Shown piece by piece: positions 14,305 through 33,667 of a stretch of DNA of 64,000 nucleotides. The number at the start of each line of letters is the position of its first letter. The first letter of the stretch is position 1. The stretch lies in sequence record NC_054921.1, one strand, 5' to 3'. The notes under the pieces are model-generated. The model was given only the letters and a program-made list of their open reading frames with translations. It made no database searches and had not been told where the DNA came from. The DNA is from Escherichia phage vB_EcoM_IME537. The translations under genes and the position numbers were made by a program.

Positions 14305-14330
14305 GGGACCTTCGGGTCCCTTTAGTTGTT
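14305..14330 (+). terminator. Rho-independent terminator GGGACC-TTCG-GGTCCC followed by a T-rich run
   Basis: 6-bp GC stem, UUCG tetraloop, TTTAGTTGTTTTT. Confidence 0.7.
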
Positions 14331-29178: not shown

Positions 29179-29182
29179 CAAT

Positions 29183-29206
29183 GGGGACCGAAAGGTCCCC
29201 ATATTT
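29183..29206. terminator. Bidirectional terminator GGGGACC-GAAA-GGTCCCC with T-run
   Basis: 7-bp GC stem, GNRA loop, ATATTTTTATTT. Confidence 0.7.
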
Positions 29207-29497
29207 TTATTTACGGAATGAAATAAAAGCAGCAACTGAAGCAACTAAACTGTCTTCAATATAAACTTCAATTTTTACCGGAGCTTCTGACTCAAATTTA
29301 CCTGTTACTACACCTTGGAAAATGCTTTCAGTCTGTTCTGGCTTTGAAAAATTTTCAGAAGGAAAAATTCCAAACTTTTTATCTGTTCCGAAAATTTTGA
29401 TAAATTCATCATAAACCACTTCGTTAAAAGCATTATCAGCAGGAATAACGCCTTCAACTACAAGTTCTTGACCTAAAAAGCGTAAAGAAGATTTCAT
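29207..29497 (-). CDS. Hypothetical early protein (alt.-3-like position) expressed from the early promoter cassette
   Basis: 96 aa, ATG with GAGG RBS inside the conserved leader. Confidence 0.6.
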   Translation of the reverse strand: MKSSLRFLGQELVVEGVIPADNAFNEVVYDEFIKIFGTDKKFGIFPSENFSKPEQTESIFQGVVTGKFESEAPVKIEVYIEDSLVASVAAFISFRK

Positions 29498-29506
29498 TTT
29501 GTGTTC

Positions 29507-29562
29507 CTCATGTTATGTCAGTAAGTCTACTATAACACAACACGAGGGACTTGTAAACTACA
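29507..29562 (-). promoter_or_regulatory. T4 early promoter cassette, copy 1 (-35 GTTTAC, 18-nt spacer, -10 TATAGT, leader with RBS)
   Basis: 52 of 53 nt identical to 43601..43656. Confidence 0.65.
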
Positions 29563-29917
29563 TTTTGAACTTTTTAGTACGCGTAATAGGCATGCGTCGA
29601 TTTTATACTGTTTCATTGTTTGAAGAGCAGTATCAAAACAGCATTAATGACACCAATTGGATTTCCACCCAAGTTTTTAAGCTTAACTAATGATAGTTTC
29701 TCATTAACACCTATCATTACGATATGCATCATTTTGTCGCCTGGTTTAACGTTTTATCTGTATCACCGCCAGAGGTGTATGTACAAAATCTAAATCCAGG
29801 AAGCACGCTTTCTTCGCCGGCTTGAATAGCAAAAATTTGTGGTATTTTATGCTTAGGATTTAAGTTAACAACCGGCGCCGAAGCGCCGTCAAATAATTAT
29901 GTAATAAGTTCCATGAT
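29563..29917 (-). pseudogene. Degenerate duplicate of the 5' ~350 bp of alt (Alt N-terminal ~117 codons) with stops and frameshifts
   Basis: about 75% DNA identity to 31620..31969; translation MELIT*LFDGASAPVVNLNPKHKIPQIF...TYTSGGDTDK...KMMHIV... mirrors the Alt N-terminus. Confidence 0.7.
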
Positions 29918-31969
29918 TTATCCTTGAACGAACTTGTAAGGCATGTTTGCAATATCTATGCAAGACGCAATAATTCCAAGAGATGATTCTACTTTCTGTT
30001 TAACATTTGATGAAACAAATGATGCAAAGTCAACTCTATCTTCTATATCACCTGTCATTGTAACCAATTCACCAGTTTCCATTAAACGGTCACCGTCATA
30101 AATTGCCGATTCGGTGAGTTCTTCTGTAGTCATAACTTCAGCTTGAATAAGCTTGTTGTTAGTTCTAACTGTTCCATCGTTGTAAGATGCATCGGTTATT
30201 TTATTAACTTTGACCATTAATCCACGTGGCAAAATGACTTCCATTTCATTTGAAGGCGCTAAACTTCCACCGGGTAAAACAACATTGACCTTATCAGCCC
30301 CAGTAATAACCCATCCAATTCCGACTAAATTATCGCTAGAATTAACAAGCCCTTCATCAGTTTTATCAATAGAAACACTTAGACGCTTTTCGTCTGGTAA
30401 AACACCTATAGATGAATCAGTCATCCAAGTACCAAAAATATTTGGATATAATGATGTTGACACAAAGTTTCTAAAATAAAAAACTCGATTTTTTACCAAT
30501 GCTTCATATATTGAAGGTAACATTCGTTGCGAACGATATAAAGTAATACCTTTTGGCAATCGATCACCATTTTTAAAGGCTGAATCTAAATTATCGATGG
30601 CTTGTTCTATTTCGGGTGCTGTCAAAATACTTGTACGCTCATCTGGATTATATAATCCCAAAAGAGCATTATTCATGTCTACATATCCTGAACCCACATA
30701 TTCACGAATTCCGCGTTTTTGAGCCGGTGTGTATTTAGATGAATCTTTATTTTCGACTATAGAATGCAATGACCATCCAACGGTAAGAGCATATCCACGT
30801 AATTCTCTTCGAATAATCTTTGTTTTTATTGCATTCCAAGAATTTTGCACTAACTCATTTGCAGCATCTTGATTTAAATGCGAATGCTTGTTAATATTTC
30901 TTTCTAACCAAGCACTTTTATATTTTTCTAAAGTATCATCGACTATAGAAGCAATAGTTTCTAAAGTTTTTATTGAAGTAATAGATTCTTTTCGTAATCT
31001 TTCTAAAGCTTTATTTTTTATTTCTGCATTAACATCAGATTCTTTATCTTCAGGAATTATAGAAGCTTCTCTGAATGCCATTCCAGCTGTAACACTATTA
31101 AGAGCATTCTCTAATGCAAATCCTGAAGTAGAAATAACGGTTAATTCGTTAGCATCAGAAATTAAAGGCGCGTCGGCGGGTTTATTTAATTCTGCTGCTG
31201 AAGCCTCAAATTTTTGAAACATTGGTGTTTCAAATCTAGAAGATTCCAATGACTGACTTTGTGCAATTGCTCTACGGGAAATTTTAACTTTAACTATTAC
31301 AGCTTGGTCAGAACGTTTATCGTTTTCTTGCGCAATAGATGCTGCAATTGCTTCATTTTTAGTTACTTGAACCCCAGTATCTTTATTGATATAAACATCG
31401 CCGACCTTCGATTCAACTTTAGTAAAGAGCTCGGTACTAATTTCCGGAACTCCTGGAATGTCTTCTAGTGATACATTTTTGCGATGTATAAGAATATATG
31501 CATACTTTTTATCGTAATCCCAGAGTTCCTTAAGAAGGACGTATCTGCCACCTGAACGACTACGGATAAGTCTATCAGCAATAACTTGAATTTGTCGAGC
31601 TTGACCAGCAGTTTTAGACTTAAGAATACGAAGCATACAAGCATCAATTTTATACTGACGCATCGTTTGCATTGCAACAGTAAAAACTGAATTGATGTAA
31701 TTAATTGGACTTGGACCGAGACCTTTTAATTTAGCAATTGAACCCTTAGCAGTTAATGTAAAAGGAACAATATGCATCATTTTATCGCCCATCTTTAAAT
31801 CACGATTAGTATCACCTCCAGATGTATAGGTACATAAACGAAAGCCTGGTTGTTCAATTGCGTCATCAACATGAACTGAAAAAATTTGCGGTATTTTCTT
31901 CTTTGGATTTAAGTTTGTAATTGGAAGAGTAGTATCTTCGTCAAATAATTCTGTAATTAGTTCCATCAT
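29918..31969 (-). CDS. alt: Alt, head-packaged ADP-ribosyltransferase
   Basis: 683 aa, MMELITELFDED...; synteny between gene 54 and gene 30. Confidence 0.9.
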   Translation of the reverse strand: MMELITELFDEDTTLPITNLNPKKKIPQIFSVHVDDAIEQPGFRLCTYTSGGDTNRDLKMGDKMMHIVPFTLTAKGSIAKLKGLGPSPINYINSVFTVAMQTMRQYKIDACMLRILKSKTAGQARQIQVIADRLIRSRSGGRYVLLKELWDYDKKYAYILIHRKNVSLEDIPGVPEISTELFTKVESKVGDVYINKDTGVQVTKNEAIAASIAQENDKRSDQAVIVKVKISRRAIAQSQSLESSRFETPMFQKFEASAAELNKPADAPLISDANELTVISTSGFALENALNSVTAGMAFREASIIPEDKESDVNAEIKNKALERLRKESITSIKTLETIASIVDDTLEKYKSAWLERNINKHSHLNQDAANELVQNSWNAIKTKIIRRELRGYALTVGWSLHSIVENKDSSKYTPAQKRGIREYVGSGYVDMNNALLGLYNPDERTSILTAPEIEQAIDNLDSAFKNGDRLPKGITLYRSQRMLPSIYEALVKNRVFYFRNFVSTSLYPNIFGTWMTDSSIGVLPDEKRLSVSIDKTDEGLVNSSDNLVGIGWVITGADKVNVVLPGGSLAPSNEMEVILPRGLMVKVNKITDASYNDGTVRTNNKLIQAEVMTTEELTESAIYDGDRLMETGELVTMTGDIEDRVDFASFVSSNVKQKVESSLGIIASCIDIANMPYKFVQG

Positions 31970-31989: not shown

Positions 31990-31997
31990 TATTTATA
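31990..31997 (-). promoter_or_regulatory. Late promoter TATAAATA for alt
   Basis: - strand TATAAATA about 20 nt upstream of the alt ATG. Confidence 0.5.
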
Positions 31998-32002
31998 AAA
32001 TT

Positions 32003-32020
32003 AAAGGCCCGAAGGCCTTT
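32003..32020 (-). terminator. Hairpin AAAGGCC-TTCG-GGCCTTT
   Basis: 7-bp stem with tetraloop, downstream of the 62-aa ORF. Confidence 0.45.
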
Positions 32021-32207
32021 AATAATCTAACGGTAAGAGAGTACGATATATTTCAAACTTTGGACCTTTTTCATAGGCATCAAATGTTTCTGTGAATTTA
32101 TTATAAGCATATGCATCTACAAATTCGAGAATGACTTGTGATACAGAAGTAGAAACATCTCCACCTTCTTTTTGAGCAATGACAATTGTTTCTAAGTAAG
32201 CTTTCAT
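32019..32207 (-). CDS. Small hypothetical protein, coupled (ATGA) to the gene 30 stop
   Basis: 62 aa, ATG overlapping the ligase stop. Confidence 0.5.
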   Translation of the reverse strand: MKAYLETIVIAQKEGGDVSTSVSQVILEFVDAYAYNKFTETFDAYEKGPKFEIYRTLLPLDY

Positions 32208-33667
32208 AGACTAGTTACCTCATGAAAATCGCCAAATACATCTTCGAACGTATTAGCTTTAGTTTTATCTTCGCGTAAACGAATCGCAATCGGAAGAAAT
32301 AATTTAACGTAATCAGTGCGGCCATCAGATTTTAACCAACCGTTGCATTCGCACTCTAGAATTTTTCCAATATAATAATTTTGGTTTTCCATAATGCGAG
32401 TACGGTCAAGTTCATGCGATTTTACACCGGCTTTATCTTTTAAGCCTGAACCAGCATTTACCTTAATTTTTCCACACTCTGACTCAAGAATAAATCCACC
32501 TGCTTTAGTAGGGTCTTTACGGTGAGGATAAATTCCTACAATTTTTAAATCAACATCAATTACTTCTTTAAATTTATAGAGATTTTTTGAACGAGCATTT
32601 TCCCATAATCCATCGATATTTTTGAGAATAATACCTTCAAGACCTTGGTCAATATACTTTTTATAAATTACCTTAGCTTCATCTAGGTTATTTACTACCT
32701 GGTTTTCAATTAAAATTACTTTATCATATCCTGATGTCATTTGTTCTAGTTTAGAAAAACGTACATCATATTTCAAACGAAATGCAGGAAGACCGTATAT
32801 TTCTACCAACGGAACATAATCCCAGACCTGAAACTTCATACATTGGGCTTCTTTTTCAGAAATGGTTCCCTTTAAAGATTTATTGGCGATTCCATTAGAA
32901 GTAGTACGTGATTCAGCTACTTCGGCGAATTCTTTGGCTTTACTAATTTCAGGATAAGCATCAAAAAGAAAATCTAGTCCTTCTGGTTCCTTTTTAACTT
33001 GCTCATGGTATACCAATTCGCCATCAATTAACACACCTTCTGGATGAATCTGGCGGGCTTCAGCAGTCATTTTGATTAACTCTTCCTTAAGAAGATCTAA
33101 TCCTAGATATTCATTACCAGCTCGCGATAAAAGACGAACATCATCTAATTCATCGCCTCGGACTTCAGCAAAGCACCGAGCCCCATCAGCTTTTAACTGG
33201 GCAAAGGCTGGAAATTTGATATTCTTATTAATGCCTTTTTCATCATAAGAACTTGCAAGCATTTGAGGTTGTTCAGGAATTAAACCTGGCCAAACTTTGT
33301 TTGCAATAGATACTGAAGCACCGCATTCAAGGTCTCGCATCATCACTCGACGCAAAACTTCAACATCATCTTTTTTACCATCGGTGATATATCCAGTTAA
33401 TTCCTCAATTGCTGCATTTCCAGTCAATTTCCGAGTAGCTAATGTGAATTCAATGAAGTCAAGCATATCGGTAAGAGTCAACATTCCAAAACTCTGGGTA
33501 GCAATACCAGGTTTAGGCCATTTCTTGATATAATACTGTAACCCACGAGAATAAGTCAGACGATATACTCGTTTAAGCAATTCATTATCTTTATTCTTTT
33601 CAAGAATTGCTTGCTTCTGCTTAGTTGAACCAATAGATGCTATTTCGTTCAGAATTTTAAGAATCAT
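32204..33667 (-). CDS. 30: ATP-dependent DNA ligase gp30
   Basis: 487 aa; adenylation motif KADGAR. Confidence 0.95.
   Translation of the reverse strand: MILKILNEIASIGSTKQKQAILEKNKDNELLKRVYRLTYSRGLQYYIKKWPKPGIATQSFGMLTLTDMLDFIEFTLATRKLTGNAAIEELTGYITDGKKDDVEVLRRVMMRDLECGASVSIANKVWPGLIPEQPQMLASSYDEKGINKNIKFPAFAQLKADGARCFAEVRGDELDDVRLLSRAGNEYLGLDLLKEELIKMTAEARQIHPEGVLIDGELVYHEQVKKEPEGLDFLFDAYPEISKAKEFAEVAESRTTSNGIANKSLKGTISEKEAQCMKFQVWDYVPLVEIYGLPAFRLKYDVRFSKLEQMTSGYDKVILIENQVVNNLDEAKVIYKKYIDQGLEGIILKNIDGLWENARSKNLYKFKEVIDVDLKIVGIYPHRKDPTKAGGFILESECGKIKVNAGSGLKDKAGVKSHELDRTRIMENQNYYIGKILECECNGWLKSDGRTDYVKLFLPIAIRLREDKTKANTFEDVFGDFHEVTSL

Follow-up and report, generated by a model that had tools for sequence, protein, structure and literature searches.

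A pseudogene downstream of alt in Escherichia phage vB_EcoM_IME537 is very probably the stump of a full-length second alt-like gene

Results

Genes and transcription signals at the alt locus

The window, meaning the whole 64,000-nt stretch of Escherichia phage vB_EcoM_IME537 DNA (NC_054921.1) that was analysed, belongs to a Tequatrovirus (T4-like phage). The region around the stretch under study is 96-99% identical to Tequatrovirus genomes, the closest being GRNsp7, PD112 and CE1, and T4 stands at 96.4% identity. On the minus strand, gene 30, encoding DNA ligase (32204-33667), is followed by alt.1 (32019-32207), alt (29918-31969), the stretch under study in the slot of alt.-1 and alt.-2, and alt.-3 (29207-29497), which is the same order as in T4T; gene 54 lies on the plus strand and is convergent with alt.-3. 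The alt.1 product (62 aa) matches Pfam PF24647, 'Phage blade protein' (E=2e-29), and the first 4 nt of alt.1 are shared with the end of gene 30.

The alt ORF encodes the head-packaged ADP-ribosyltransferase (683 aa), matches Pfam ADPrib_exo_Tox (PF03496) with E=2e-33, and is 96-99% identical to alt of T4 and its relatives. Alt is an internal head protein that is present in about 40 copies per head, is injected with the DNA and is non-essential; the gp21 protease cleaves off its short N-terminal propeptide (PMC9026906). The next gene downstream of the stretch, alt.-3, is intact (96 aa, DUF5498). T4 escapes the CmdTAC defence system through mutations that extend the C-terminus of Alt.-3, whereas deletion of alt.-3 leads to no escape (PMC11618068).

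An early promoter of the sigma-70 type was predicted at 29557-29529 on the minus strand, with TTTACA and TATAGT separated by 17 nt and a TG upstream. It scored 10/12, the best in the region, and shows the features of T4 early promoters (GTTTAC-type -35, 17-nt spacer and TATAAT-like -10). An earlier note on this DNA had reported an early promoter cassette directly after the alt-like stretch. The cassette is there, and the same sequence stands directly after the stop codon of an intact second alt-like gene (alt2, described below) in phage W143 and is an annotated promoter in phage Lutter; we identify the predicted element as the native alt.-3 promoter, which adjoins the remnant without belonging to it.

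Just upstream of alt, at 31990-31997 (minus strand), lies the motif TATAAATA, which we take to be the T4 late-promoter consensus. A scan placed a bidirectional terminator hairpin between alt.-3 and gene 54 (29181-29202), which carries a terminator annotation on both strands in phage e11/2; transcripts that cross the remnant likely end at this hairpin. Given the late promoter upstream of alt and the terminator after alt.-3, the remnant, which sits below the former and above the alt.-3 promoter, is probably transcribed passively within the alt late transcript, and it would have no function of its own.

The stretch after alt is homologous to the 5' end of alt

The homologous stretch runs on the minus strand from an ATG at 29914, three bases past the alt stop codon, to a TAG at 29560-29558. 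The earlier note had placed it at 29563-29917; alt-like sequence does lie there, and its true bounds are 29914 and 29558. Local alignment of the reverse complement of 29500-29930 with the alt 5' end gave a score of 115, about 39 standard deviations higher than that of 200 shuffled sequences (20.7 +/- 2.4, maximum 29), with 73% identity over ungapped columns and 68% when gaps are counted. In blastn against the whole 64-kb window, the remnant matched only the alt 5' end, at 31767-31969 (203 nt, 70%, E=3e-19) and at 31638-31712 (E=0.002). A tblastn search with Alt recovered three collinear pieces in three different frames (29917-29732, 29753-29628 and 29643-29569), with a joint E of 1e-29. The concern, raised in the earlier note itself, that self-comparison might find nothing and the resemblance be a chance one over-interpreted by eye can therefore be dismissed outright, as the shuffles and both E values speak against it.

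The peptides that had been read across frameshifts and stops (MELIT*LFDG..., GFRFCTYTSGGDTD, MMHIV... and QYKIDACLLRVLK) were all present in the translation. The remnant covers the N-terminal part of an alt-like gene, including the region of the MELITE prohead-protease propeptide motif. Its 5' segment (29578-29914, minus strand) comprises codons 1 to about 113 of the second alt-like gene and corresponds to alt.-1 plus most of alt.-2 of T4. Two single-base repairs were sufficient for the stretch to translate into 116 residues, 113 of which (113/116) are identical to the N-terminus of intact Alt2.

An intact second alt-like gene occupies the same slot in relatives

The earlier note had asked whether any relative carries an intact second alt-like gene here. 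Phages W143, phiC600P9, UGKSEcP1 and ECp13 do: a full-length second ADP-ribosyltransferase gene of 2058 nt (685 aa) lies between alt and alt.-3. With alt2 as the query, 496 phage records matched, and the match spans at least 80% of the gene in 400 of them, including T2, T6, RB7, RB14, RB27 and RB51. Among the matches listed, the remaining ones cover only nucleotides 1-348 of alt2 (T4, RB55, Lutter, HY03 and others), except for sutha and SP21535. Two of four IMG/VR contigs carried intact alt2. The RefSeq name of the gene is 'Alt-like RNA polymerase ADP-ribosyltransferase', and the RB14 and RB51 records give the name 'alt.-2' to the intact 685-aa gene.

Identity of the window stretch is 94-95% to nucleotides 1-348 of intact alt2 and only about 70-73% to the adjacent alt; its 5' segment is 94.6% identical to W143 (segment L002, 2565-2988). 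Intact alt2 in T2, T6, RB14, RB51, W143 and others is orthologous to the parent of the remnant and occupies the same slot. These genes keep codons ~117-679, including the PF03496 domain, whereas the remnant consists of codons 1-116 and the last 20 nt.

Intact Alt2 and Alt share 41% amino-acid identity overall and are alignable along their full length, which indicates that the whole gene was duplicated, and long ago; the two paralogues are old and their duplication is not recent. Conservation is visibly much higher over the N-terminal ~235 residues than in the remainder. In Alt2, the PF03496 domain covers residues 414-620, wholly inside the part that is deleted from the window. The Alt2/Alt alignment contains LYRGQ, FVSTSL and EAEVILPRG in this domain, presumably the R, S-T-S and E-x-E catalytic motifs of the ART class. 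T4 Alt (gpAlt) is thus a paralogue of the remnant's parent gene, with which it shares the MELITE N-terminus while being only 41% identical overall. Unlike T4 Alt, the remnant has neither a catalytic domain nor an open reading frame: only codons 1-116 and the last 6 are kept, and PF03496 is absent from this stretch. Judged by its sequence, the remnant is a descendant of the Alt-type ADP-ribosyltransferase family and not a working member of it.

A deletion between 9-bp direct repeats very probably accounts for the stump

The alignments of the window to the 5' part and to the 3' part of alt2 overlap by 9 nt, and these 9 nt are CTAAAAAGT. The window holds a single surviving copy of this direct repeat, at 29569-29577 (minus strand), which marks the junction. 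In the intact genes, each deletion endpoint carries CTAAAAAGT, with exactly 1699 bp from one copy to the other; UGKSEcP1 and ECp13 have two perfect copies, and the 5' copy is one base off in W143 and phiC600P9. Past the junction repeat lie the last 11 nt of the paralogue (29558-29568, minus strand), which were aligned to the 3' end of W143 alt2 and include its original stop codon TAG (29560-29558). From the junction on, the window is 96.7% identical to the last 20 nt of alt2 and the downstream intergenic region. Since the last 20 nt of the remnant and its flank match the 3' end of the intact gene, the main decay event was a single 1699-bp deletion, which was out of frame because 1699 mod 3 is 1. 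The same junction was found in all 20 remnants examined (20/20), with the F25 copy lacking one A, indicating a single origin; an IMG/VR scan for the junction returned two contigs.

The earlier note had suggested a tandem duplication, followed by decay, of the N-terminal, capsid-targeting part of an internal-protein gene; on this model, only that part of alt would have been copied, and the partial copy would then have decayed through point mutations and frameshifts. The decayed alt-like copy itself is confirmed, and such a history would fit the presence of N-terminal sequence only, placed in tandem with alt at ~70-73% identity. However, the stretch is far closer to the 5' part of alt2, a separate and full-length gene that most relatives carry; the final 20 nt correspond to the 3' end of alt2; the deletion endpoints fall on 9-bp direct repeats of the intact gene; and the paralogues are alignable over their full length. 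We therefore regard duplication of the N-terminal part alone as hardly credible. The stretch 29558-29914 (minus strand) is very probably a pseudogene, the stump of a full-length second alt-like gene that was deleted between 9-bp repeats.

The repeats suggest a microhomology-mediated mechanism. In a T4-type ancestor, slippage during replication or illegitimate recombination between the CTAAAAAGT repeats, 1699 bp apart, would have removed codons ~117-679 and with them the entire catalytic domain. What survived would have been codons 1-116, the final 20 nt including the original stop codon, and the native alt.-3 early promoter.

Later lesions reduced the coding capacity of the stump

T4 alt.-1/alt.-2 lies at the same locus, has the same 1699-bp deletion junction and the same one-base loss in an A-run, and is about 98% identical in nucleotide sequence to the window. 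As in T4, the window remnant is on the same strand as alt and is flanked by the alt stop codon and the alt.-3 early promoter. The comparison with the T4 alt.-1/alt.-2 region that the earlier note had suggested thus identified one and the same locus. Compared with T4, the window carries two extra lesions, the codon-6 change GAA>TAA and a one-base loss in a T-run.

These lesions bear on whether the stump might have been retained for a function, either through alt.-2 as a small protein (in T4 also through alt.-1 with its MELITE motif) or through its hairpin as a 3' stabiliser or pause site. We consider this very unlikely, although alt.-1 and alt.-2 are annotated ORFs in T4 and 17 of the 20 examined remnants keep the alt.-2 ORF open.

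The nonsense codon TAA at codon 6 (29897-29899, minus strand), which alignments show to be GAA in T4 and the intact copies, was present in ten of 18 aligned remnants and in PD112 too. It truncates alt.-1 of the window from 61 codons to the pentapeptide ORF MELIT*. The exact 51-mer that carries it was found in 43 of 477 phage records, and its identity in 43 records argues against a retained function. The stop replaces the glutamate codon itself, so that the window has neither the MELITE cleavage motif (L/I-x-E) nor an open frame; T4 alt.-1 and intact alt2 both retain MELITE. To call this N-terminus capsid-targeting, as the earlier note did, is reasonable by analogy, with the paralogue keeping MELITE and the window having a stop in place of its glutamate.

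The A-run has lost one A (AAAAA>AAAA, 29752-29755, minus strand), which is the frameshift that splits T4 alt.-1 from alt.-2. The loss is common to the window, T4T, 15 other aligned remnants, PD112 and F25, and is absent only in EC128. EC128 (ON210139.1) is the only remnant examined that keeps the AAAAA run, and it has the codon-6 nonsense.

The T-run has likewise lost one base (TTTTT>TTTT, 29635-29638, minus strand), a second and lineage-specific frameshift that cuts alt.-2 of the window from 67 to 39 codons. Outside the window, the exact 67-mer with this change was found only in PD112, CE1 and 235Ecol030PP; because these three other deposited phages share it, a sequencing error is unlikely.

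The open alt.-1 (61 aa) and alt.-2 (67 aa) frames of T4 are therefore missing from the window. These ORFs do not define the locus, and their loss fits the status of a pseudogene. Other lineages carry lesions of their own, namely a 7-nt tandem duplication (AGAAACT) in HY03, a one-base loss at the junction in F25, and ATG>GTG in LH2. The window/PD112 lineage and HY03 have each lost the intact alt.-2 frame through a separate event, and F25 has an altered Alt.-2 C-terminus, which again argues against a retained small protein. After the deletion, drift removed the A in all carriers but one, introduced the codon-6 nonsense in about half, and removed the T in the window's own lineage, leaving a locus one step further decayed than that of T4.

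In HY03 (NC_031047.1), the Alt-like CDS beside the remnant is annotated at just 645 nt, and alt appears fragmented.

The hairpin lies in former codons of the second gene

Folding identified a GGCGC-UUCG-GCGCC hairpin at 29887-29874 (minus strand), 31 nt past the alt stop codon, as the dominant local fold. It occupies the former codons G10-A-S-A-P14 of the paralogue. The earlier note had described a perfect hairpin that replaces codons; it is indeed perfect, and it replaces nothing, as the same 14 nt encode GASAP in every intact copy aligned (W143, phiC600P9, UGKSEcP1 and ECp13). An origin of the hairpin as a product of decay was rejected on this ground.

Extra-stable C(UUCG)G tetraloop hairpins were reportedly described in T4 by Tuerk and colleagues in 1988. 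The remnant hairpin has the same loop and closing C-G pair as this class. It arose within coding sequence (G-A-S-A-P) and has no T-tract, the next bases being GGTTGTTAAC. Because no T-run follows, the terminator scan made no call there, and the annotation of e11/2 has no terminator at this position; a role as a rho-independent terminator was rejected for want of the T-tract. The window, at 36% G+C, contains seven perfect C(UUCG)G hairpins with 5-bp stems, starting at 14306, 17250, 20652, 29874, 32005, 35925 and 36842. Of these, the hairpin at 32005-32018 separates alt.1 from the alt late promoter and has a terminator annotation in phage e11/2.

The hairpin sequence is identical in the aligned intact copies and in all aligned remnants. 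When IMG/VR was scanned for synonymous GASAP codon variants, three contigs came up, too few to be informative, and all had the same hairpin. This invariance, together with membership of the C(UUCG)G class, whose 32005-32018 member is annotated as a terminator in e11/2, might be taken to favour a retained function of the hairpin. Against it, the T-tract is missing, the codons of the intact gene fully explain the hairpin sequence, and phage sutha lacks the entire 5' part of the stretch, hairpin included. That the hairpin was co-opted as a 3' stabiliser or processing barrier, or that alt.-2 acts as a small Alt-N-domain protein interfering with or assisting the head packaging of Alt, is a speculative proposal that we think improbable.

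Substitution patterns differ between intact and remnant copies

In four intact copies, 22 synonymous changes and one non-synonymous change were counted over 339 nt. The same 339 nt in 18 remnants showed 17 synonymous, 13 non-synonymous and one nonsense change (Fisher p=0.0015 against the intact copies). Among remnant-private changes, eight were synonymous and 14 non-synonymous or nonsense (p=2e-5). Relative to the intact copies, the remnants thus appear to have a relaxed ratio of non-synonymous to synonymous changes, in a sample of only four intact and 18 remnant sequences in which some polymorphisms are common to both groups. A relaxed ratio also weighs against a retained function.

We also looked for raised diversity of the remnant as a sign of decay, and no acceleration was visible: pi was 0.019 in the remnant, compared with 0.033 and 0.026 in the flanking genes. 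A diversity no higher than that of the flanks might speak for a retained function. We read it as the mark of a young, single-origin deletion haplotype and not of constraint. A value no higher than in the flanks is expected for a young haplotype and is no proof of neutrality, which leaves a small opening for residual function.

Discussion

The stretch between alt and alt.-3 is the alt.-1/alt.-2 pseudogene that is already annotated in T4, and as such it was known before. The GenBank record of T4T (HM137666) notes of alt.-1 and alt.-2 that they 'together reflect a deletion and further frame shift in the second copy of gene alt', and Nolan et al. (2006; PMC1524935) listed the same two T4 ORFs as a paralogous duplication of alt. 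The mechanism of the deletion can be read straight from perfect 9-bp repeats that lie 1699 bp apart.

Phage sutha (PV245934.1; segment L007, 925-3128) lost alt2 in another way. The first ~1930 nt of its alt2 are gone, and the last 128 nt (38 codons) are kept. The junction lies at another microhomology, AAGTTCGT(T/C)CAA, which is found in the end of alt and inside alt2, and the ~1.9 kb between the two sites was deleted. This deletion is independent of the T4-type deletion; alt2 has thus been lost at least twice, which shows that the gene is dispensable.

The alt gene itself occurs in two allele types, one of ~682-684 aa (T4 and the window) and one of ~697 aa (UGKSEcP1, sutha, Lutter, Eco_EL and RPN226), with only ~74% nucleotide identity between them in the catalytic half. 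This comparison was made between window positions 29918-31969 and segments L008 (601-2694) and L007 (925-3015), and drew on the alt lengths in deposited records. Both types are found with intact or with deleted alt2. The linkage of the same deletion to two very different alt alleles indicates that the locus has recombined among backgrounds, as a mosaic.

Beyond annotation, the stump is of little importance. The model phage T4 belongs to the minority that lacks a second head-type ADP-ribosyltransferase, and the intact gene is the more interesting subject for study; our literature searches turned up no work that addresses what the intact second alt gene of T2, T6 and most relatives does. A correct annotation would label the region as a pseudogene remnant of a second alt-like gene, and not as 'hypothetical proteins' or 'ADP-ribosyltransferases', the names used in many deposited genomes. 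In GenBank, the labels given to the remnant ORFs vary among 'hypothetical protein', 'ADP-ribosyltransferase', 'RNA polymerase-ADP-ribosyltransferase Alt' and none at all.
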